64,000 bases of DNA. Source: a virus. The stretch is taken from positions 1-64,000 of the IMG/VR virus record IMGVR_UViG_3300020048_000023; one strand, given 5' to 3'. The notes under the pieces were generated by a model, which worked only from the letters and a program-made list of their open reading frames with translations, was not told the DNA's origin and made no database searches. The position numbers and the translations under genes were made by a program. Below, in pieces: positions 9,327 to 38,663 of the stretch; within the stretch, counting starts at the first letter, position 1; the number at the start of each line of letters is the position of its first letter.

Positions 9327-9357
9327 TTTGTTTATTCAAATATTATGTCTACATTTG
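9327..9357 (+). promoter_or_regulatory. Bacteroidota sigma-70 promoter upstream of tRNA group 1
   Basis: TTTG-N19-TACATTTG; about 30 nt identical to the promoter at 38051-38082. Confidence 0.75.
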
Positions 9358-9384
9358 CAGCATAATTCAAAAAACAACATTGAT

Positions 9385-9636: not shown

Positions 9637-9732
9637 ATGAAAACAGTTACAAGCATATTACGACTACGCCAGCGCAGACAAAGGCTGCTTCAACGCTCAC
9701 AAGCGTCTGGACGAGGTACGACTATGATGTAA
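9637..9732 (+). CDS. Putative attenuator leader peptide 1 (Arg/Leu/Gln-rich) MKTVTSILRLRQRRQRLLQRSQASGRGTTMM
   Basis: Manual translation; followed by terminator and Arg/Leu/Gln tRNAs. Confidence 0.8.
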   Translation: MKTVTSILRLRQRRQRLLQRSQASGRGTTMM

Positions 9733-9766
9733 TGTTTCTTAAAAAATAGAATATTATTTTGTGGAT

Positions 9767-23689: not shown

Positions 23690-25129
23690 ATGTCAAAATT
23701 AAATCCGACCATCAAGCGAGAATCCAAATTCTCAACCCAGCGTTTAGCTGGTGGGTCTGGCGCTTTGGCTGCTAAGCAGGACGCCGAATCCTTGTTACGT
23801 AGGGCTGTTATGGCTTGCCTTTTATGGGAAGACCTGTTCTACAGCTCTGGTACCGATAACTCAGATAACATTGCAAAGTTGATCGCACAGGTTGACCCGC
23901 AGACTGTCGCTGAGATCGCTATTGAGGCTCGCGTTGCCCAGAAATTGAGGCACGTACCTTTGTACATCGCTTCCGAAATGCTCAAGCACCCTAAACATAG
24001 GGAATACGTAGGCGAAGTTCTTCCGCTGGTTATCACACGTGCCGACCAGATCACCGACTTCCTTTCTCTGTACTGGAAGGCTAACGGCAAGAGGAAAGCG
24101 ATTGCCGCACAGGTTAAAAAGGGCTTGGCTGATTCCTTCCATAACTTCAACGAGTACAAGCTCGCTAAGTATGACAGGGATTCCGAAATCAAGTTACGTG
24201 ACGTTATGCGTCTTGTACACCCTAAGCCGAGGAACGCCGCAGAAAGCGAACTGTTCGATAAGGTTATCAAGAGGACTCTGGAAACCCCAGATACTTGGGA
24301 AGTAGCTTTAAGCACAGGACGTGATAAGAAAGCAACTTGGGAACGTCTTATCGTTGAAGGTAAATTGGGTGCGCTTGCGTTCCTGAGGAACCTGAGCAAT
24401 ATGACCAAGGTTGGTGTTGATCACAACATAATCCGTCAGGGTTTTGAATCGATCTACTCAGCAATGTTGCTCCCGTTGAACTTCACCACGGCTGCCGCAC
24501 AGGTACCTGTATTCAAGGCTGATATCGAAAAGATGATGCTGAGGACTTACGCAGGATTACCTAAGCTTACAGGCTACACTATCTTCGTCGTAGACGTATC
24601 GGGTAGTATGAACTCTCGTACCAGCTCAAAGAGCACCGTGAACAGGATTGACGCAGCTTCAGCTATGGCTGTATTAGCAGCAAACCAGTGTGAAAACATT
24701 GATATCTATTGTACAGCAGGTAGTGACAGCTCACGTATCCATCAGACTGCAAAAATCGATTACCCGCAGAAGGGTTTCGGCTTGATCGACCAGATCGCTG
24801 AGTACAAACATATGGGTAAGAAAAGTTTAGGTGGTGGTGGTATCTTCACACGTCAGTGCTTGGAGTTCATCGCTACGCAAACTACAAAAGTGCCTGATAG
24901 GATTATCATCTTCTCAGACTCTCAGGACTGCGATTACCCGCACCTGAGGGTTCCGAAACCGTTCGGTAAGAACAACTACATCGTAGACGTATCGGCTGAA
25001 AAGCACGGCGTAAACTACAAGGGTGTATGGACGGCAGAAATCAGTGGTATGTCGGATCACTTCCTGACCTACATCGCTTCACTGGAAGGGTTGCAAAACA
25101 CTTTCGAAGACGACGATTCACTGCAATAA
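23690..25129 (+). CDS. rsr: Ro60/TROVE RNA-binding protein with vWA domain
   Basis: CLLWEDLFY, LRHVPL, YKLAKY, LRDVMRLVHPKP, PDTWEVALS, LRNL; DVSGSM MIDAS motif. Confidence 0.9.
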   Translation: MSKLNPTIKRESKFSTQRLAGGSGALAAKQDAESLLRRAVMACLLWEDLFYSSGTDNSDNIAKLIAQVDPQTVAEIAIEARVAQKLRHVPLYIASEMLKHPKHREYVGEVLPLVITRADQITDFLSLYWKANGKRKAIAAQVKKGLADSFHNFNEYKLAKYDRDSEIKLRDVMRLVHPKPRNAAESELFDKVIKRTLETPDTWEVALSTGRDKKATWERLIVEGKLGALAFLRNLSNMTKVGVDHNIIRQGFESIYSAMLLPLNFTTAAAQVPVFKADIEKMMLRTYAGLPKLTGYTIFVVDVSGSMNSRTSSKSTVNRIDAASAMAVLAANQCENIDIYCTAGSDSSRIHQTAKIDYPQKGFGLIDQIAEYKHMGKKSLGGGGIFTRQCLEFIATQTTKVPDRIIIFSDSQDCDYPHLRVPKPFGKNNYIVDVSAEKHGVNYKGVWTAEISGMSDHFLTYIASLEGLQNTFEDDDSLQ

Positions 25130-25225
25130 CCCAATCCTGAAAGGGAATAACAATGAAGCCGCTCCATTTCCAAAGTGGTCTTTTTTGCGAAAAGTACCTA
25201 TAAACGGTACTTTTCGCATTTTTAT

Positions 25226-25692: not shown

Positions 25693-26048
25693 TCTGACTC
25701 TACTTCCTCTTGTATAACTTTTTTGGCTTCCTGTCTGGCTGTCTTTTTACTCTTGACAGTCCCCAGTTCAACTTCCCACCAATTTAACCACCCTTTTTTG
25801 GGGTGATGATCCGTGTAGTCGTACCGAAATTTGTTTCTTAACCCATAAGCTTTCATAGTAAAGTTGTATTTGTATGATAAATCAATCAGGTTTATTGTGC
25901 AAATATAGGTTTATTATTTTGAATAACAATGGATTTGTATTGTTTTACTGACAAACAACCTATTATCATTGTTTTTGCACGATTTACATACCTTATGATA
26001 ATGTGCATTTTTGGTGATAACGGCATATTTATAGTAAATAGTCTATTA

Positions 26049-27437
26049 ATGTTATTTACCAAAAGCCAGCTTATCTCCGAAGTAATACGTTTAGCTGAGT
26101 CTTCTGATTACAGGGATGCTTGGGATACGTTTTCCGAAATATTTGACCGCCAGAAAGAAAAAATAATTGAAGATATTCTGGAAGGTAAAACACATGAATA
26201 TTGGCAACTGATCAAATTCCCTCGTTTAAAGAAAATTTGGGAAGATTATGTCAGGTATGGTTTTGTTCGTGACGAAAAAGGCGTAGAAGAGATTAAATAC
26301 ATATGCATTCGTAATATAGCTAAATTAGTGGCTAATACGCAGTTTGTGGGTCACACTGAGGTGCACCCAGAGGAAATAGTGGATGATTATTTTGAAATCA
26401 ATGGTTTGAAATTTAAAACACATACTACGACACGTAAAAAATTTGTTGACCCAAACCAACTAAAAATACAATTTCCAGATAATACTGAAACTATTAGTAC
26501 GCCAGAGCCCGAAGAAGATTATCGACAAGAAATACAGTATACAAAAGAAGAATTTTTTGACAGGTTAGACGCTTATATAGGTGATGATAAATTTAGCGAT
26601 TACGCTACTGCTCCACTTGTTAAGTTATCATACGATCTGATTGAGGCGGAAGACCCAGTAGAACAACTTTTATTATGCGATCGCATTTTTAACGTTGTTC
26701 ATATGCGTGGCGATATTGCCGCGTTATTTGTTGAAGGTGGGTCACAGGCACTTAGTGCACTATCTGGCGAGCACGCTGATGCACAAGTATACAGACCAAT
26801 GGAAGAGTTATATCACATCTTACAAGCTAATTTACTAATAGAAGGCTTCCAAGGGGGCTCGGATATTGACGCAAGGCTTAAAAACTTAGTTGCGCCGACC
26901 ATAAATAACTTTATACGTAACATTAACGGTAAACAGAGGTGGACGGTAGTTCCATTCGAAATGTGGCGCCGCGTCAGAACTGAGTTTTTCAGGTATGGGT
27001 TTATTCGCAGCGAAAAGGCTCTACAGAACGTAATTGATATTGTTACCCATAATGTTTTACAGATCATAGTCAATACTATGATTGATTATTTCGCCCTATA
27101 TAATAGGTGGCGGGAAGAGCTGAGTATGATGGGGGACGAACACGAACTAAAACAGATATTCCCGTATATTGAGCAAGCCTGCGCCCAGTATAAATTAGAT
27201 AAAGAGGACTTGGATATGTTTGACGAATATGCCCAAGACGAGAAGGGTATTACTCGGGCTACCGACGCGGCACGTGCCGTATTACTATCCAATATTAAAG
27301 AGCTGGCACAGGAATCAGACCCAGTGCAACAGGTGGTTATTCTCGACCATATATTTGACATTAGCCACCAGCGTAATGATCTGGCTTCTTGGTTAATTGA
27401 AGGCGGAACTGCGTCGCTCAGCAAGCTAACTGCATAA
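26049..27437 (+). CDS. Hypothetical protein with internal domain duplication
   Basis: Two copies of RYGF(V/I)R.EK ... D.IF...H.R.D.A...EGG...L. Confidence 0.65.
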   Translation: MLFTKSQLISEVIRLAESSDYRDAWDTFSEIFDRQKEKIIEDILEGKTHEYWQLIKFPRLKKIWEDYVRYGFVRDEKGVEEIKYICIRNIAKLVANTQFVGHTEVHPEEIVDDYFEINGLKFKTHTTTRKKFVDPNQLKIQFPDNTETISTPEPEEDYRQEIQYTKEEFFDRLDAYIGDDKFSDYATAPLVKLSYDLIEAEDPVEQLLLCDRIFNVVHMRGDIAALFVEGGSQALSALSGEHADAQVYRPMEELYHILQANLLIEGFQGGSDIDARLKNLVAPTINNFIRNINGKQRWTVVPFEMWRRVRTEFFRYGFIRSEKALQNVIDIVTHNVLQIIVNTMIDYFALYNRWREELSMMGDEHELKQIFPYIEQACAQYKLDKEDLDMFDEYAQDEKGITRATDAARAVLLSNIKELAQESDPVQQVVILDHIFDISHQRNDLASWLIEGGTASLSKLTA

Positions 27438-27733: not shown

Positions 27734-28258
27734 ATGAGTTACTTTTCAATGGACGTAGAGTCCGACGGTGAATACCCACCCGATTATTCAATGGTATGCT
27801 TTGGGGCAGTCAAGGTAGACGACCCAACAAAAACATTTTACGGCAGAACAGCGCCAATTAGCACATTATGGAAGCCAGCGGCACTGGCTATATCAGGGAT
27901 AAGCCGACAGGAACATTTACTGTTTCCGAGCCCAACTGAAACAATGAACCAGTTCGGTATTTGGCTTAAAAAAAATTCGGATGGTAAACCAACGTTTATT
28001 TCCGACAACCCAGCTTATGACTGGCAGTGGATCAACTACTACTTTCATAAGTTTTATGGTAGCAACCCTTTTGGCTTCAGTGGAAGGCGAATAGGTGACC
28101 TGTACTGCGGTCTTGTTAAGAGCGGGAACGCCAATAAGATTTGGAAGGGAAAGTACCGTAAAACGCGCCATACGCACAATCCAGTGGATGATGCTATGGG
28201 CAACACGGAAGCTTTAATCGCCTTCAGAGATCAATTAGGACTTAAAATAGAATTCTAA
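27734..28258 (+). CDS. DEDDh exonuclease (RNase AS-like)
   Basis: DVESDG...DNPAYDW...HNPVDDA. Confidence 0.8.
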   Translation: MSYFSMDVESDGEYPPDYSMVCFGAVKVDDPTKTFYGRTAPISTLWKPAALAISGISRQEHLLFPSPTETMNQFGIWLKKNSDGKPTFISDNPAYDWQWINYYFHKFYGSNPFGFSGRRIGDLYCGLVKSGNANKIWKGKYRKTRHTHNPVDDAMGNTEALIAFRDQLGLKIEF

Positions 28259-30714: not shown

Positions 30715-30733
30715 CGGCATAAATTAAAGCCGT

Positions 30734-31420
30734 ATGAGAGTTATACTACATTTAAGTAAAAACAAAGTACCAATTTCAAACCCACGGAGCCACGCACTAA
30801 GCCGTTTACATAAATGGTTTGGGCGAAATAATGAAATACATAACGAGCAATCATTCTATACTTTTTCCGACATTTGGGGTAAAGATAGTACGTCTAAAGA
30901 TGGCGTATTAGACTTTCCAAATGGCGGAAAATTTGTTTTCAGCTCGAATGATACTGGATTAATAAGTAAAATTCTTTTTGCTATTGATCAGGACTCCGAA
31001 TTTATATTTGGTATGAAGGTAATAGGTAGGGATTACGTTGTATTTGACCCATCTGCTGATTTTGGTGACTACTTTTTGTTTCAATCACCAATACACCTTA
31101 CGCAAAAATCCGCTGAAATCGGTTCAAAAAATAAATCTATAACATTCAAAGATACAAATAGCTCGGATGTTATGACCCATATTATGAAGCTGAAAATGGA
31201 TAAAGCTGGTGTCAATTCAGAAGGTTTTAGCATAGCATTCGATACCAAATCTCCAAGCAAAAGAACTCACGTGTGGAAACATAGTGATAATAAAAAACTG
31301 GTATTAAATTATTGCCCCGTAATCATCAACGGCACTAACGAGCAGAAAATATTCTGTCTTGACGTTGGCGTAGGTAAATCAACAGGTACTGGATTAGGTT
31401 GTATTAAACCCACAAAATAA
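30734..31420 (+). CDS. cas6: CRISPR endoribonuclease Cas6
   Basis: C-terminal GVGKSTGTGLG glycine loop; context. Confidence 0.85.
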   Translation: MRVILHLSKNKVPISNPRSHALSRLHKWFGRNNEIHNEQSFYTFSDIWGKDSTSKDGVLDFPNGGKFVFSSNDTGLISKILFAIDQDSEFIFGMKVIGRDYVVFDPSADFGDYFLFQSPIHLTQKSAEIGSKNKSITFKDTNSSDVMTHIMKLKMDKAGVNSEGFSIAFDTKSPSKRTHVWKHSDNKKLVLNYCPVIINGTNEQKIFCLDVGVGKSTGTGLGCIKPTK

Positions 31421-31426
31421 ATTACT

Positions 31427-31981
31427 ATGTATACGATAAAATATTCTGGCGTTTTTGCGTTTATGGCGCCGTACAGTACTGGCAGGAACACCTATATTAA
31501 AAGCAGGTCTTTCGTTATTCCGTCAACACTCAAAGGTATAGAACGATTTCTATTCCCAGAGCTTTTGAGGGATAAGTCCGTAAAACTGCAAAAAATATCA
31601 CGTTGTAAGTTACAATATGAGAGCATACACAATACTCAGGAAGAAGTAACAAGGTGCTCAGTTAAAAAAAACAAGAACAAAGATATAATACAGGAAAAAT
31701 CGGTCATTACCCGAGGCTTGCTTTATAATGTGTCCTGTTTTATTGCTTTTAAAAACGAGGAAGATGCCAAAAGAGCTTATGCTGAAACAATAAGATTATC
31801 CCGCAAAGAGGATATGTTATTGCCAAAGGAGTTTAATGAATGCAGCGACGAAGAGTTTTCAAATCTGAAAGGTATTGAGTTTGTTGAAACCAACGAAGCA
31901 GACTCACAAGCTATACTGGTAGGAAACAATAGGTACGATGATTACAGTAAAACGTATGGAAGAGTTGTTATCACACGTTAG
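31427..31981 (+). CDS. cas5: Cas5
   Basis: YSGVFAF.P...S..F..PSTL.GI N-terminal motif; context. Confidence 0.7.
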   Translation: MYTIKYSGVFAFMAPYSTGRNTYIKSRSFVIPSTLKGIERFLFPELLRDKSVKLQKISRCKLQYESIHNTQEEVTRCSVKKNKNKDIIQEKSVITRGLLYNVSCFIAFKNEEDAKRAYAETIRLSRKEDMLLPKEFNECSDEEFSNLKGIEFVETNEADSQAILVGNNRYDDYSKTYGRVVITR

Positions 31982-34163
31982 AGCTAAAGGTAGTCCTACT
32001 AATACGTCAGTCTTTCAACATTTGAAAGATACTGCGTATATTATGAACATACTATCACGCCACTTTAAGTTTAATAAGTGGGTGAGTAAAAATGGCGCAT
32101 TATTGCACGACATAGGCAAATGCCACCCAGTATTTCAATCAAGGCTCAGTACACCGTATGACGGCTCCGACCTCTGGATAATACCGTTTAGACACGAAAT
32201 ATCATCCATACTTTTTATCTCGTTATTTAAGCCAAAATACTGGGATATACTTATTGAACTTATTATTGGGCACCATAAATCTGTTTATCTACGGGGCGGA
32301 AATGAAATAGGTAGTAACCATAAGGGGCTACTAACTTTAATAGCCAATAACCCAGACGTATTTGAACGCCACGCTGGAACGGAAGAGGAATGGAATGAGT
32401 GGTCAAAAACAGCTTTATCTATACTTGGCTATCTTAAAATTAAAACTAAGCCTATTAGCTACAGCGAAGCCAGAGCCAACTATGATTACGTTGTATCGTA
32501 TTGTAGAGAAATAAGGAAAACAGGTAAGGGTATATCTAAATGGCGCGGAATACTCAATGCCGCCGACCATATATCATCGCACCTTGATCTATTTAGGGAT
32601 TCATTTGAATCAACTAAAAAAAGTATGTTTGTAAAGCCAGACGTTAGTGTTTATGACAAAATGGCTAATTCCTTATATCCTCTTTCGGTTATAGATATGA
32701 AAAAGGAGAAAAAGCATAAGCATACACTTATTATAGCACCTACTGGGGCTGGTAAAACCCAAGCTCTTCTAAGGTGCGCAACTGGTAGAATATTTTATAT
32801 TCTTCCGTTCCAAGCGGCAATTGACGCTATGTTTAGGCGTTTTAAACACGATCTAACAACAACAAACCCAAACTTGGCTATTTCTATACTTCACTCAAAA
32901 TCGGTACCTATTATAGAAAGAGAGGGTACCGTAGCGGAAGCAGTACTGCGGGATAAAATTGGATGCGGACTGAAAGTAGCAACACCATACCAAATATCAA
33001 AAATACTTGTTGGGTCGTCTGGATTTGAGCAGACCATACTTGATATAAGCGGGCAGGATATAATAATGGATGAAATACACTCCTATAATAGAGAGGCTAA
33101 ATCTTTTATATTAACGCTTATTCGTGTTTTACTGCTATTTAATTGTCGTATACACTTCGGAACCGCCACACTTCCAACGGATTTAAAAAATAAGATCATT
33201 AAAATACTTGGCGGAAAAGATAACGTTGATATAATTGAATTAACGAGCGAGCAGCAAGACACATTTGATAGACATATAATTTATAAAAGAGATAGTTTTA
33301 CTGACTGTCTTCCAACTATAGACGAAGCAGTGGCTAATAAGAAAAAAATCTTGATAGTAGCTAATACTGTAGGCGTTGCCCAAAGAATATATAATGATAT
33401 ACTACAAAGGTATCCACATTATAAGTCGTCGCTACTTCACAGCCGATTCAGACGTAAAGATAGGTCTGTTAAAGAAAACGAATTGTTTGATAATAATGCT
33501 TGGAAGGACGGTGGTATTCTCGTAGCAACACAAGTGGTTGAGGTTAGCCTTGACATTAATTACGATGTATTATTTACCTATTGTGCTCCATTTGACGCAC
33601 TCATACAAAGAGGTGGTCGTATTAATAGAGATAGAAATAGACCCCCAGACCGTATTTGCCCCATATACGTAATAAAGACACGAATGAATCATACTAATCG
33701 GGGTGAAGTTATTAGAACCGAGCTTGGCGGTTATAACGAAGGTATAGTAAATGCCACGTGGAATATTTTAAAAGATGGCGAAATACTAAAAGAATCAAGC
33801 ATACAGGGGATGATTGATGCAATATACCCTAATACAGTGGATGATCAAAACCTTATCACAAACTGTATATTTGACGCAGATGGTAACTGTATTATGCAGA
33901 AGCTAACTAATCAAAAAAACGACATACTCGAACAGATATTCACCCAGTCCAATGATATCTTGATTTTGGAAAGCGACGTGGAAGAATATAGGAGAAATTA
34001 TAAATCCAGAGCCGAACTTGAAATACCAGTGTTCTATCTGTCAAGGCATATAGAGAATGTGCTTATACATAATGAGTTAGGTGAGCTAAAGAAAATGGAC
34101 TGCGGGCTCGAACCGTACATTTTACCCAATGCAAACTACAGCTTTGAACGCGGAATTATTTAA
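31956..34163 (+). CDS. cas3: Cas3 HD nuclease-helicase
   Basis: HL..T, LHDIGK, RHE, HH, AD; APTGAGKT, DEIH, TAT, ATQVVEVSLDI, QRGGRINR. Confidence 0.95.
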   Translation: MEELLSHVRAKGSPTNTSVFQHLKDTAYIMNILSRHFKFNKWVSKNGALLHDIGKCHPVFQSRLSTPYDGSDLWIIPFRHEISSILFISLFKPKYWDILIELIIGHHKSVYLRGGNEIGSNHKGLLTLIANNPDVFERHAGTEEEWNEWSKTALSILGYLKIKTKPISYSEARANYDYVVSYCREIRKTGKGISKWRGILNAADHISSHLDLFRDSFESTKKSMFVKPDVSVYDKMANSLYPLSVIDMKKEKKHKHTLIIAPTGAGKTQALLRCATGRIFYILPFQAAIDAMFRRFKHDLTTTNPNLAISILHSKSVPIIEREGTVAEAVLRDKIGCGLKVATPYQISKILVGSSGFEQTILDISGQDIIMDEIHSYNREAKSFILTLIRVLLLFNCRIHFGTATLPTDLKNKIIKILGGKDNVDIIELTSEQQDTFDRHIIYKRDSFTDCLPTIDEAVANKKKILIVANTVGVAQRIYNDILQRYPHYKSSLLHSRFRRKDRSVKENELFDNNAWKDGGILVATQVVEVSLDINYDVLFTYCAPFDALIQRGGRINRDRNRPPDRICPIYVIKTRMNHTNRGEVIRTELGGYNEGIVNATWNILKDGEILKESSIQGMIDAIYPNTVDDQNLITNCIFDADGNCIMQKLTNQKNDILEQIFTQSNDILILESDVEEYRRNYKSRAELEIPVFYLSRHIENVLIHNELGELKKMDCGLEPYILPNANYSFERGII

Positions 34164-34228
34164 CATCTAAAAATAAATTTGGTAGATTCAAAAATTAGTT
34201 ATATATTTGCCACGTTAATCCAAAACAT

Positions 34229-35566
34229 ATGGAAGCCATAAATTTAGGTAGAATACTTTTACGTCAATACAATAAGGTTAATTCAACGAATTACTCAGCA
34301 AAGGAGTTTTTTGAGAATCATTTTGAAGTGTTCCATAGCCCAAAGTCTGAAAAGAATTTTATAAGCATAACAAATAGCCCATTTCATAATAATGGTGGCA
34401 AAAAACCAAAACCATACGAAAAACGTATGGCTGAATATCTGGAAAAAATAGCGTCTGGTAATAGAACTACTTCAATAGGTCGTGATTTTCCAGCGGAAGG
34501 GGAATCACAAGCGACCAGATCACAGGTTGATATGAGAAACATAGACGCATTAACTACGGAAGATATCTATTTGGCTCAGATTGGTGATAATCTATTTGTT
34601 AACATAGAATCATATTCGGTCGGAATAGGGCACCCAGAAGTGTTGTATGAAATCTACCAAGGGTGGTTGGTATACCGAGATAAAATATTGGATAATACGT
34701 TTTACAATTACAAAGGCAACCAGTGTGATACGTGGAACGGTATATGGTTATTGGCTAATACCGAAGACCAATCAGTTGATATGACCGTAAATGATATAGT
34801 AAACAGCTATACGGCAAAGAAAAAAGATAAAAGCGGCAACGAAAAACCTATTGTTGATGAACATAAGTGTTTAAGGTTTGAATCAGTTCGCTGGCACCAA
34901 TTTTTTATTAACCTCGCGGTAAAGTATGCAGATGAATCATTTAACATTAATGTCAAATTATTTAGTGATACAAATAAAGCGTATGGTGATATTACCGTCG
35001 ACCTTAAAGACCTGCGTTACGTGTACGACTTCCTGAAATTGCATACCGAAATAACTGGTAGTAAAAGAGCGTATATTCAAAAGATATTTGAGTCTTGGGA
35101 TATAAAAAGCTTTCGGTATATACTTGAAGGAGATACCTTGGAAAAACATTGCTTTGAACCAAATAATTTTTATGATATCATTCATAATCTCAAACAAGAT
35201 AAAAAAGTTAAACAGAAAGATATAATTAATCTTAAAAACTACTACTTTATGATACTGAGTACCCCAGAAATAATAGCTACAACCGATAGACTATCAACGC
35301 AGTTAATTAATTTCGCCAAAAGTAAGGCTGGTATGAGAAATAGAATAACTGACGTTGAAAAGTTGGTTAATTCTTGGTCAGTGGCTCACTTTAGTAAGAA
35401 CTTAGCTGAAATGGCTAAAACTTATGAAGATGATTTTACAATCGATATATTGGATAATAACACTATTATACAGCTCAATAAGGACTGCTTCAATGTGTTT
35501 ATATCCCAGCTTAAACTTAAATTCTATTTATCCACCTCTAAATCAAACAAAAATGTTAAATTCTAA
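34229..35566 (+). CDS. cas8: Cas8-like large subunit (type I-B-like)
   Basis: Position between cas3 and cas7; size; GR..L..YN...Y.AK.FF N-terminus. Confidence 0.55.
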   Translation: MEAINLGRILLRQYNKVNSTNYSAKEFFENHFEVFHSPKSEKNFISITNSPFHNNGGKKPKPYEKRMAEYLEKIASGNRTTSIGRDFPAEGESQATRSQVDMRNIDALTTEDIYLAQIGDNLFVNIESYSVGIGHPEVLYEIYQGWLVYRDKILDNTFYNYKGNQCDTWNGIWLLANTEDQSVDMTVNDIVNSYTAKKKDKSGNEKPIVDEHKCLRFESVRWHQFFINLAVKYADESFNINVKLFSDTNKAYGDITVDLKDLRYVYDFLKLHTEITGSKRAYIQKIFESWDIKSFRYILEGDTLEKHCFEPNNFYDIIHNLKQDKKVKQKDIINLKNYYFMILSTPEIIATTDRLSTQLINFAKSKAGMRNRITDVEKLVNSWSVAHFSKNLAEMAKTYEDDFTIDILDNNTIIQLNKDCFNVFISQLKLKFYLSTSKSNKNVKF

Positions 35567-36692
35567 AAGATTAAGAATCAAACAGGTTATTTATTACAAT
35601 AACCCAACCCTATTTTGCGTGGGTAAAGAAGGGCAAAAACGAGTATATGATAAAACATATGGAAAATACCTTGCGTATTCGTCTGGGCAGCAACAAAAAA
35701 CTACCCGCGTAAACGAGGTGTGTGAATTGCTTGGTATACCACTTGCGGATTTTGTGTTTTACTACAATGAAAAGCACAAGCAAGCGTCAAAAGGTATTTC
35801 ACAAGACCCGAGGCACGTAGAGGCTATGACACGTGGGTATATGAATGTAACCACTAATAATATTAAACGGGAAAGTCCACTTAATATTAGTACTATGTTT
35901 CCAATACACCCATTATTGGTTGAATCCATCGATGATTTAATTGCCGTAGGTCACGGGGTAAGGGAAAAAAGTTTTACCCTTATACAGGAAAAGAAAAAGA
36001 CCAAAAAAGCTGGCGAGGATGATGATGAATCAGAAAAATCAGACGGCTCAAAGACAGAAGGTAAGTACGAAGAGGTTCCAAAAACAACCGATGAATACAA
36101 AAAATTTCTCGACGAAATGGCTGATACTCGAAAAAAAGGTATAGAACATAGTTTAGCTGGTGGTAAATTATTAACCCGTGGGGTGTTCGAAAGATATATT
36201 GAAATTGACCTAACCAGATTGTTCGCATTTAACAATGATATCTTACTTCCGAGCAAAGAGATTGCCGCTGAATATATGGACGCGATCATTAAGGACGGGT
36301 GGAAAGAAGTAGACACCAAATTGTATGGTAAAATGTTTATCGTACCAAAGTCAATACGCGATAAATATATCCCTGCAATTGCCGAAGCTCTGGTTATGGC
36401 TCTTCCAAACACTAATCAGTCCAGTTCATACTCAGTAGGCGAAATAGTTGCTACGGCGGTTAGTTATGACGCCTCGGAAAATTCATATGCAATTGTGTGC
36501 GAAGAAAATAATGAAACCGCTAATGTTATATTAGACAAGGATGCTGGTTCCAAATTATTCATCACGCCTATTGCCAAAAGTAGCAGGATATTCGCAGGGT
36601 ACGACCGTGAATCAGCTACCTCAAAGGCTAATAAAGAAGCCATTGCGTATATAACTCAGGAATTGCTAAACTTCGACTACGAGGGTATATAA
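35553..36692 (+). CDS. cas7: Cas7 backbone subunit
   Basis: YSSGQQ.K; RGYM; KRESPL.IS; IDL.RLF; context. Confidence 0.7.
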   Translation: MLNSKRLRIKQVIYYNNPTLFCVGKEGQKRVYDKTYGKYLAYSSGQQQKTTRVNEVCELLGIPLADFVFYYNEKHKQASKGISQDPRHVEAMTRGYMNVTTNNIKRESPLNISTMFPIHPLLVESIDDLIAVGHGVREKSFTLIQEKKKTKKAGEDDDESEKSDGSKTEGKYEEVPKTTDEYKKFLDEMADTRKKGIEHSLAGGKLLTRGVFERYIEIDLTRLFAFNNDILLPSKEIAAEYMDAIIKDGWKEVDTKLYGKMFIVPKSIRDKYIPAIAEALVMALPNTNQSSSYSVGEIVATAVSYDASENSYAIVCEENNETANVILDKDAGSKLFITPIAKSSRIFAGYDRESATSKANKEAIAYITQELLNFDYEGI

Positions 36693-36767
36693 ACGTGAAA
36701 TAAGCCATTTTGTTCTTTGACAAATCTGGTGTAGTAAATTAATGTTTAAGGGGTTACACATAGGTAC

Positions 36768-38025
36768 ACTGTGCGTAACCCCATTCTGTAAGGAAATAAC
36801 AACATAATCGGTACATTTCTCTTAAACAATTGTACTGTGCGTAACCCCATTCTGTAAGGAAATAACAACTAACCATCGGGTTCTCCTTACCGTTCCCAAC
36901 TGTGCGTAACCCCATTCTGTAAGGAAATAGTAATACATATGCGGTTGAGTTTGCATTAGTTTTTATTGCGCATAAACCCATTCTGTAAGGAAATAATAAT
37001 CACTGACCAATTACCAGATCAGTCCAGTTAGAGTAACCCCATTCTGTAAGGAAATAACAACGAGTGATTTAAGGTGCCCGCCTCGAATACGACTGTGTGT
37101 AACCTCATTCTGTAAGGAAATAATAATTATGATAATTGAGCAGAGCCAGAGTCTTATACTGTGTGTAATCCCGTTCTGTAAGGAAATAATAAGTAGTAAA
37201 ATAAATGGCGCAATACCTTAAAAACTGCGCGTAACCCCATTCTGTAAGGAAATAATAATACACAAACGAAGGAGTAACCCATAACGTCAACTGTGTGTAA
37301 CCCTATTCTGTAAGGAAATAACAACATCGAAAAGATCAGGCAAATAGAAGCTTCAATTGTGCATAACCCAATTCTGTAAGGAAATAAAAACTTTTCGAAA
37401 GGGTTAAAGGTGTTGAACTATATGTAACCCTATTCTGTAAGGAAATAACAACTACCGACACCCTCGAACAAAGCTATTACCTACTGTGTGTAACCCTATT
37501 CTGTAAGGAAATAACAACTAATCGAAGTTGAACACATAAGCTCTAAAAACTGTGCATAACCCTATTCTGTAAGGAAATAACAACGACGGAATAATAAACC
37601 TCTGGTTGGAAAAACTGTGTGTAGCCCCATTCTGTAAGGAAATAATAATACATCGCAGGTAATCGCATTGCCAACTGTACGTAACCCTATTCTGTAAGGA
37701 AATAAAAATAGTTGTATTTGCACAGCGCCACAACCAGCAATGTGTGTAGCCCCATTCTGTAAGGAAATAACAATCAGAAACTCATTATGCTATGCTTAGC
37801 TAATATAACCTCATTCTGTAAGGAAATAAAAATAAGGAGCAATTCAAGAAGGTTGACTTAGATACGGTGCGTAACCACATTCTGTAAGGAAATAATAATA
37901 TGTACACCAGTGCAGTATCATCAGTGCACTGCGCATAACCCCATTCTGTAAGGAAATAATAATAATCAACACTTTAACCGAAAGATAAAACCATACATAA
38001 CCCTATTCTGTAAGGAAATTAAAAA
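36768..38025. CRISPR. CRISPR array: 20 degenerate 36-nt repeats (consensus ACTGTGYGTAACCCYATTCTGTAAGGAAATAAYAAY), 19 spacers mostly 29-30 nt
   Basis: Repeats at 36768, 36834, 36899, 36965 ... 37990; core TTCTGTAAGGAAAT invariant. Confidence 0.95.
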
Positions 38026-38050
38026 TAATTTAAAGTTTTTTTCACAAAAG

Positions 38051-38082
38051 CTTGTTTTATTCAAATATTATGTCTACATTTG
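38051..38082 (+). promoter_or_regulatory. Bacteroidota sigma-70 promoter for leader 3
   Basis: (C)TTG-N20-TACATTTG. Confidence 0.7.
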
Positions 38083-38123
38083 CAGCACTTTTTGAAACTA
38101 ACAACTATATATAAGAAAATACA

Positions 38124-38249
38124 ATGAAAAAGATCACCTACATAACCAGTTCCAATAACCTTATTCTGAAAGGAAATAACAATAGTTGTTTGGAAGCATC
38201 GTCAGAGGCGTTAGCCACTACGAATGGAATCGGTATGTACGTGAGGTAA
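38124..38249 (+). CDS. Putative attenuator leader peptide 3 MKKITYITSSNNLILKGNNNSCLEASSEALATTNGIGMYVR
   Basis: Manual translation; S/C/L/E/A core; terminator follows. Confidence 0.8.
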   Translation: MKKITYITSSNNLILKGNNNSCLEASSEALATTNGIGMYVR

Positions 38250-38276
38250 AGAATTTTTGATTACCAGAGCTCGATC

Positions 38277-38305
38277 AGCCCGATTCCAAAAGAGTCGGGT
38301 TTTTT
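38277..38305 (+). terminator. Intrinsic terminator (attenuator 3)
   Basis: AGCCCGATTC-CAAAA-GAGTCGGGTT plus T-tract. Confidence 0.85.
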
Positions 38306-38340
38306 GTTTTTTGTTCTTTGAATGTCTGGAAAAATATTGT

Positions 38341-38481
38341 GTGCGTCGTGGCGGAATTGGTATACGCGCTTGTCAGTGTACCCTACAAGGCAGGAATTGG
38401 GGAAAACAGGTGGACAACGGAAACTGCATTCCGTGGGCTTTATAGATTAAATCCGCGCTGGTTCGAGTCCAGCCGCGCACA
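38341..38481 (+). ncRNA. tRNA-Leu-like RNA with large insertion in the anticodon region
   Basis: GTGCG../..CGCAC ends; TGGCGGAATTGGTATACGC D arm; GCTGGTTCGAGTCCAGC T arm. Confidence 0.55.
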
Positions 38482-38488
38482 CAAACAT

Positions 38489-38564
38489 GGGTCGTTAGCT
38501 TAGTCTGGCTTAAAGCGTCTGCCTTGCAAGCAGAAGAGCAAGGGTTCGAATCCCTTACGATCCA
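38489..38564 (+). tRNA. tRNA-Ala(TGC)
   Basis: Loop CTTGCAA; G3:U70. Confidence 0.85.
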
Positions 38565-38593: not shown

Positions 38594-38663
38594 GGGTCTG
38601 ATCCCGAAGGTAGGGAGCTTCACTTGCAATGAAGACATTTGGGTTCGATTCCCACAGTATCCA
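38594..38663 (+). tRNA. tRNA-Ala(TGC), divergent
   Basis: CTTCA-CTTGCAA-TGAAG. Confidence 0.6.

Follow-up and report, generated by a model that had tools for sequence, protein, structure and literature searches.

Solitary CRISPR repeats in viral genomes often lie just past a promoter, and many of them act as RNA anti-CRISPRs (PMC10651486, Camara-Wilpert et al. 2023, which cites Faure et al. 2019). [quoted passage not shown] The origin of solitary repeats is unsettled. Varble et al. reportedly described, in 2019, recombination between spacers and protospacers of phages and CRISPR loci, leading to integration into arrays and to transduction. Here, we describe a solitary repeat for which a comparison of relatives with and without the unit reveals the site before insertion, the precise extent of the insert, and the sequences on either side, and which we tentatively read as a repeat-spacer junction captured from a CRISPR array.

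The unit lies in a freshwater phage record of 160.9 kb (estimated completeness, 67%), the first 64 kb of which make up the stretch analyzed (the window). The window holds 28 tRNA genes and a type I-B CRISPR-Cas locus that opens with cas6b and runs directly into an array of 20 repeats, and no cas1 was found in the 161 kb of phage DNA examined. The array repeats are almost invariant in their 3' 21 nt and drift in their 5' half. A motif scan of the window retrieved the core motif of the array once more outside the array, at 38163, within the unit referred to below as O1. A Cas13b (type VI-B) identity, as read from the repeat ends, was ruled out by the adjacent genes, which are of type I-B.

Compared with the described solitary repeats, O1 satisfies the SRUFinder definition of a repeat match with no other repeat within 100 bp, as its nearest repeat is 128 nt away, and its repeat coverage of 83% makes it a partial match for that program (PMC10651486). 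It departs from a further SRUFinder criterion (PMC10651486) by lying in a 41-codon open reading frame (ORF), 1.5 kb from cas7b. The pair of repeats flanking a spacer that defines a mini-array is not seen at O1: within 130 nt downstream no second repeat was found, and a terminator stands there instead. The features discussed here are collected in Table 1.

Table 1. Coordinates of the solitary units, the leader, and the type I-B locus within the window
Feature	Position	Strand	Remarks
Solitary repeat unit O2	25125-25154	+	Found with a 30-nt degenerate pattern; 0 expected by chance
30 nt after O2	25155-25184	+	Remnant 3' strand of Y-RNA-like element, from alignment with relatives
Terminator-like hairpin, ancestral	25186-25225	+	Abuts tRNA-Thr
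Type I-B genes	30734-36692	+	Directly upstream of array
cas6b	30734-31420	+	First gene of type I-B locus
cas5b	31427-31981	+	Type I-B locus
cas3	31938-34163	+	Type I-B locus
cas8b	34229-35566	+	Type I-B locus
cas7b	ends 36692	+	Type I-B locus
CRISPR array, 20 repeats	36768-38025	+	Core motif 20 times at 36783-38005, period ~66
Promoter block	38057-38087	+	Exact duplicate at 9332-9362; identical in relatives
Leader ORF 3, 41 codons	38124-38250	+	31-34 codons in relatives without insert; O1 in frame within
Region 1 (CCAGTTCCA), ancestral	38146-38154	+	Pairs with region 2 in lowest-energy fold; insert at 3' edge
Solitary repeat unit O1	38154-38183	+	30-nt in-frame insert, 10 codons (NNLILKGNNN); clean 30-nt gap in pairwise and multiple alignment with leaders lacking the unit
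Predicted 4-bp hairpin, GAAA loop	38164-38175	+	Equivalent hairpin predicted in array repeats
8-nt handle equivalent (repeat 3' end)	38176-38183	+	Ends AAT; un-inserted alleles have TCC there
O1 pseudo-spacer	38184-38216	+	Ser/Cys/Leu/Glu/Ala sensing codons of leader; matches un-inserted leaders
Region 2, antiterminator 5' arm	38225-38233	+	Complementary to 38280-38288
Intrinsic leader terminator	38277-38312	+	

The first-pass annotation had matched a 36-mer (38148-38183, plus strand) to the array repeat. This 36-mer occurs once in the window, with 0 occurrences expected by chance. The match holds for its last 30 nt, whereas its first 6 nt (AGTTCC, 38148-38153) agree with the repeat at 2/6 positions and are ancestral leader sequence, as seen by comparison with six homologous leaders; a full-length match to a resident array repeat was not found. 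The 30 nt of O1 correspond to positions 7-36 of the 36-nt repeat and agree with the array consensus at 25/30 positions, and at 26/30 with repeat 17. Of the 20 positions that are invariant among the array repeats, O1 deviates only at the second base of the loop. It presents the features of a Cas6b substrate, a hairpin and an 8-nt 3' handle, with a different loop base and compensated stem changes, and on type I-B precedent a putative Cas6b cut would fall between 38175 and 38176. Binding or cutting of the leader RNA by Cas6b is possible on the basis of these features. The same annotation was right about the surroundings of the unit, which stands alone 128 nt past the end of the last array repeat (about 120 nt had been given), is read in frame in leader peptide 3, follows a Bacteroidota-type promoter (TAnnTTTG, 38075-38082; predicted transcription) by 70-100 nt, and ends just before the sensing codons, which begin at 38184. 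Among its three reading frames, O1 sits in the one that is stop free; the GTAA loop of the array would give TAA in this frame, and the GAAA-loop variant gives no stop. This shows that the leader ORF was kept open and has no bearing on the function of the unit.

Contigs of close relatives were retrieved through the TROVE protein and a neighboring 220-amino-acid protein. The TROVE gene of the nearest relative, L258, differs from that of the phage by 34 in 1440 nt (97.6% identity). Six homologous leaders (L250, L252, L253, L256, L258, and L260) lack the insert; in these, ...CCAGTTCC is followed directly by AGTTGC, and the phage has exactly 30 nt extra in between. The insert is also missing from a lake DNA contig and a metatranscriptome contig, both of which carry the differences of the L258 allele, and the only RNA contig found represents the allele without the unit. 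The phage differs from L258 by one substitution in 38036-38153 and one in 38184-38224, and the 128 nt between the array and O1 (promoter, 5' untranslated region, and leader start) are phage backbone with small indels relative to L258. Because the insert is missing from the six homologous leaders and from the lake DNA and metatranscriptome contigs, O1, which is known from one phage population only, is a recent, lineage-specific insertion and not part of the design of the attenuator.

The CRISPR-Cas locus itself was found in none of the fetched relative contigs that reach the site. Homology with the relatives stops at ~30.66-30.72 kb and resumes at ~38.02 kb, which makes the cassette a 7.3-kb insertion (~30720-38020). 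Its right junction is inside the last array repeat, which is broken off after GGAAAT where it meets the phage backbone. The relatives have TnpB, a MjaI-like restriction enzyme, two small genes, or nothing at this position, and the site just upstream of leader 3 is thus a recombination hot spot. One lake-water run (X3) yielded both a contig identical to part of the array (37838-37988) and a leader contig without the unit (37979-38491), and armed and un-inserted lineages may co-occur in one lake-water sample.

The leader into which O1 was inserted fits, in modeled folds, a classical four-region switch. In the consensus fold of six alleles, region 2 stays paired with the 5' arm of the terminator, with two compensated pairs, and a single 9-mer recurs as region 1 and as the terminator's 5' arm in both L256 and L250. 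As a separate finding, the conservation of leader ORFs ahead of tRNA clusters, together with the compensated antiterminator pairs, supports the attenuator idea. Leader ORFs lie at 9637-9733 and 38124-38250, with counterparts in L250, L252, L256, L258, and L260. Further downstream, the segment 38343-38485 has tRNA-like ends and an internal insertion of ~60 nt and received no tRNA call from ARAGORN or Rfam, and a tRNA-like gene at 38594-38663 has a weak Rfam tRNA match and is missed by ARAGORN.

A second unit, O2, is present in the phage, and no further copies beyond O1 and O2 were found in the 161 kb. The first 5 nt of O2 overlap the last codon and the stop codon of the Ro60/TROVE gene. No ORF with a start codon was found across O2; the frame-0 ORF that runs through it has no start codon, and O2 is therefore not in a leader peptide. 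The relatives have, after the TROVE stop codon, a Y-RNA-like hairpin element of ~120 nt, and O2 stands in place of ~95 nt that form the 5' part of this element. The ~95-nt deletion, on the 5' side of O2, is at a GTAA-type microhomology with the repeat, and a 16-nt deletion starts ~30 nt past O2 (~position 27-30), which equals one spacer length. The Y-RNA-like element directly after Ro60/TROVE is conserved in relatives (L252:7747-7870 and L258:3447-3560), with a long terminal stem and a GGTTACTTCA loop motif, and Rfam contains no family matching it. Between O2 and the cas genes lie a 502-amino-acid protein with a weak CARF/HEPN-like match (25929-27437) and a DEDDh exonuclease (27734-28258); both belong to the backbone and not to the cassette, because they are also found in relatives without CRISPR-Cas.

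A third unit (L260:757-788) occupies the site equivalent to that of O2 in L260, an 11-kb contig of a more distant relative that has no cas gene at the place of the phage cas locus. Here, 32 nt were cleanly inserted, such that the final codon of TROVE and its stop codon are re-formed and the Y-like element downstream is left intact. O1 and O2 agree at 26/30 positions, and O2 and the L260 unit agree at 27/30. The three units have in common a GAAA loop and an AATAACC start, which occur in no resident array repeat, and all three retain the parts that are conserved in the array, namely, the 4-bp hairpin and the 8-nt handle. The TROVE gene of L260 has 85.8% identity, versus 90-97% in several relatives without a unit; the distribution of the units does not track the gene tree, because L260 is more distant than several of the relatives that lack them. 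The 77 IMG/VR loci with a TROVE homolog and four more distant contigs contain no unit.

A metagenome locus, L246 (with L245 and L248), has the same gene order as the type I-B locus of the phage, with Cas6 and Cas7 only 38% and 41% identical to their phage counterparts. Its array (L246:7084-8494; spacings of 54-61 nt) has repeats whose 3' 21 nt are identical to those of the phage array, and whose 5' half differs and is often shortened. Because the 3' 21 nt are identical despite a Cas identity of 38-41%, selection in these adaptation-less arrays acts on the 4-bp hairpin (with a GNAA-type loop) and the 8-nt 3' handle. No Cas6b relative above 40% identity was found among 1.8 billion representatives, and the Cas8b search retrieved no related viral locus. 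Arrays with GAAA-loop repeats were not found in the IMG/VR scans, in which queries for the unit, GAAA-type arrays, the leader, and the promoter gave nothing or chance matches only. A search of a phage collection gave no match, none of 401 sampled Bacteroidota genomes has an array with the unit core, a scan of species genomes gave, among the matches listed, single chance matches only, and Rfam yielded no matching family.

Our preferred reading, held at less than even confidence, is that O1 is a captured repeat-spacer junction that moved a PAM off its target. We infer the following route. The 30 nt at the 3' end of a type I-B repeat, which make up its functional part, would have landed in a leader ORF that already existed, between TCC and the stretch of sensing codons, when the locus recombined with a CRISPR array carrying a spacer against it. 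One crossover would have taken place within the homology of spacer and protospacer, and the other would have been an illegitimate or microhomology join within the repeat. The product would be a repeat end joined directly to the former protospacer, with the PAM-like TCC pushed 30 nt away and the repeat end in its place. Type I systems read a repeat end beside a target as "self." This would shield the inserted allele from interference, whether it came from relatives armed with I-B systems or from the newly gained cassette of the phage itself. Cutting of the leader RNA by Cas6b, if it occurs, would yield a 3' product that forms a crRNA-like guide against alleles without the insert. In the leader, the unit would have survived because 30 nt keep the frame and the GAAA-loop variant has no stop codon. 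The GAAA loop and the AATAACC start point to a donor array different from the resident one. At O2, the deletions that bracket the repeat part plus ~30 nt, together with the position pattern of its changes described below, fit the capture of a repeat-spacer junction, and we also count the presence of the L260 unit on a contig without a cas gene at the locus in favor of capture.

The sequences that flank the units are consistent with this reading. In all three units, the intact 3' end of the repeat adjoins sequence that is homologous to the relatives. In un-inserted relatives, this adjoining sequence is preceded by TCC (O1), CCC (O2), and TCT (L260 unit), and the un-inserted alleles have a common C at position -2; these trinucleotides are putative PAMs, in a pattern that was noticed after the fact. 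The pseudo-spacer of O1 agrees with L258 at 33/34 positions and with L256 at 32/33, and the one base that disagrees is 38189, at position 6, where a third-codon change is synonymous. In the pseudo-spacer of O2, the changes that are found in the phage only, versus all relatives, are at positions 12, 18, and 24 from the repeat end. The chance of all three changes falling on every-sixth positions is 4/2600, a value that applies to O2 alone and to a pattern noticed after the fact. Type I Cascade flips out every sixth base (6, 12, 18, and 24), and these bases are free to drift in an old spacer. The fold predicted for O2 offers an alternative reason for the same changes: one of them, at position 24, closes a new local hairpin whose loop contains the other two (positions 12 and 18). 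Among spacer bases, C accounts for 13% at every sixth position versus 21% elsewhere, which as a trace of a 6-nt periodicity is suggestive only.

Spacer 5 of the resident array (37062-37091) agrees at 26/30 positions, with mismatches at 6, 23, 27, and 28, with the tRNA-Ser(TGA) gene of L256 and L259. The target is preceded by TCT in this gene, and by TCC in the Ser(CGA) gene of the same relatives. At position 6, the spacer deviates from GAGTGG, which is constant in the ten tRNA-Ser genes compared, and the tRNA-Ser genes of the phage itself differ from the spacer much more than those of the relatives. This suggests an array directed against the tRNA region of sister phages, and a CRISPR family that would target sister phages in this way is counted for capture. 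Against capture stand the lack of a GAAA-loop donor array in the scans, the lack of a matching spacer, the small number of units (only three), and the restriction of O1 to one population. The array spacers do not match either pseudo-spacer, and the other spacers gave no match above shuffled controls in the genome of the phage or in the examined loci of the relatives.

The best placed of the other explanations, possible if on the unlikely side, is that the units act as RNA. They would be bound and cut by Cas6b and serve either as Racr-like repeat decoys or as single-repeat guide genes for the I-B effector. Their setting argues for such a role: by sequence, the units sit within what would be short and abundant transcripts, O1 in the attenuated leader and O2 in the tail that ends the Ro60 mRNA at its 3' side, both precede the two best terminators of the region, and the promoter upstream of O1 is strong. 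Viral solitary repeats of such a layout act as RNA anti-CRISPRs (PMC10651486). The units also retain exactly the hairpin and 8-nt handle that are conserved in the array. From O1 to O2 and the L260 unit, the stem shows a compensated change of U-A to C-G, and pairing is kept in all 52 cells when 13 distinct repeats and units are compared, a weak support given that 39/500 shuffles did equally well. Moreover, O2 and the L260 unit differ at 3/30 positions versus 34% at the fourfold sites of the adjacent gene (P = 0.0026). This closeness reflects purifying selection, a transfer in the recent past, or independent captures from arrays that are themselves conserved, the last of which could explain it with no RNA function. 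A decoy, moreover, would titrate Cas6b and Cas7 of the phage itself, the one RNA contig found has the allele without the unit, and the 30 nt after O2 are predicted to be base paired, which is poor for a guide.

We consider it unlikely that the units are neutral scars, left by the illegitimate insertion of a repeat fragment during the arrival of the cassette at the hot spot and tolerated only since the frame stayed open. The exchange of TnpB, the MjaI-like enzyme, or nothing at the locus among relatives and the occurrence of O1 in a single population are what such an accident would leave, and as one in three frames is stop free, survivorship alone explains the in-frame state. Chance, however, fails to explain why the functional core is complete in all three units, each of which has its repeat end at the junction, and it fails to explain the common C at position -2 and the changes with a 6-nt period.

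A stronger form of the capture reading, in which the unit is both weapon and shield, strikes us as quite unlikely. With a Cas6b site and a handle set before conserved sequence of its own, the phage would turn an abundant leader RNA into a single-repeat guide against sister phages, and its own copy would read as self. Should this hold, the guide would match L258 at 33/34 positions, with TCC as the putative PAM there, a phage without cas1-cas2 would gain a guide without adaptation, and in co-infections the allele with the unit would act as a kind of natural drive.

The first-pass annotation had proposed that Cas6 or another effector can bind or cut the leader of the tRNA operon and thereby couple CRISPR to tRNA expression. 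In the form considered here, Cas6b would act on the leader RNA, by cleavage or binding, at a point between region 1 and the sensing codons and would thereby switch the tRNA attenuator, which we hold to be improbable. The position of the insert gives this proposal some basis: O1 stands precisely where region 1 ends at its 3' edge and has moved region 1 30 nt away from the sensing codons, a shift that by classical attenuation logic should alter the switch. The more specific scheme, in which a cut detaches region 1, frees region 2 for the antiterminator, and turns the tRNA operon on, is equally improbable. The homologs of leader 3 in array-less phages, named by that annotation as a check, lack the repeat in 6/6 cases, as do the two contigs with the L258 allele. 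This absence from every homologous leader found, together with the location of O2 and the L260 unit outside leader ORFs, speaks against a designed coupling of CRISPR to tRNA expression, and no biological logic connects the level of Cas6b with how much tRNA for Ser, Cys, Leu, Glu, and Ala is available. Finally, it is scarcely credible that O1 was once the last repeat of the resident array and decayed where it stands: the array does decay toward its right end and O1 is beyond that end, but the 128 nt in between are ancestral backbone common to array-less relatives, the right junction of the cassette is inside the repeat that ends at 38025, and the anchor spacing of 158 nt is not a multiple of the ~66-nt period and puts O1 out of register.

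Returning to capture as the preferred reading, O1 resembles Varble-type recombination in that homology between a spacer and its target would have joined phage DNA to repeat sequence; it differs in that a stable, PAM-displacing repeat footprint in the phage is what we propose here. If capture is true, such units preserve a readable record of the CRISPR attacks that related phages make on one another, and they mark both the targets and the PAM. A degenerate terminal repeat of an array would likewise be expected beyond a decaying array end, but here ancestral non-array backbone intervenes, the unit is missing in relatives, and it is out of register. Like CreA/CreR and Cracr (bioRxiv 10.1101/2024.10.29.618823), the phage sequence combines a degenerate repeat, a spacer-like stretch, and a terminator. 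Unlike these, in which the RNA is partially complementary to a cas or toxin promoter beside a PAM, the pseudo-spacers have no above-chance match in the 161 kb, whether their first 12, 16, 20, or 30 nt are considered; the best matches of the first 12 nt (11/12 and 10/12) are at chance level, and none is near a cas promoter. A self-regulator of the CreR/CreA type, which would call for such a partial match, is thus unsupported.

Viral mini-arrays (PMC11656645) are similar to the present case in that a repeat is followed by sequence matching close viruses, and a resident spacer of the phage matches the tRNA-Ser genes of its relatives. They differ in that O1 has no second repeat and its "spacer" is the phage's own homologous locus and not an acquired fragment. 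The closest counterparts are the viral SRU/Racr (PMC10651486), with which O1 shares a single phage repeat outside an array, a position just past a promoter, and a retained hairpin. In contrast to these, the phage carries matching cas genes and no matching host array was found in the scans, O1 spans only 30 of 36 nt, O1 lies inside a translated leader ORF, and O2 overlaps a stop codon; SRUFinder masks ORFs (PMC10651486). The case shows that a translated regulatory leader can harbor a repeat, and it provides a simple system for asking whether a single repeat before native sequence makes a working guide. Solitary phage repeats were already known, and what is new here is their combination with matching cas genes in the same phage, with a translated leader, and with empty sites that can be compared.
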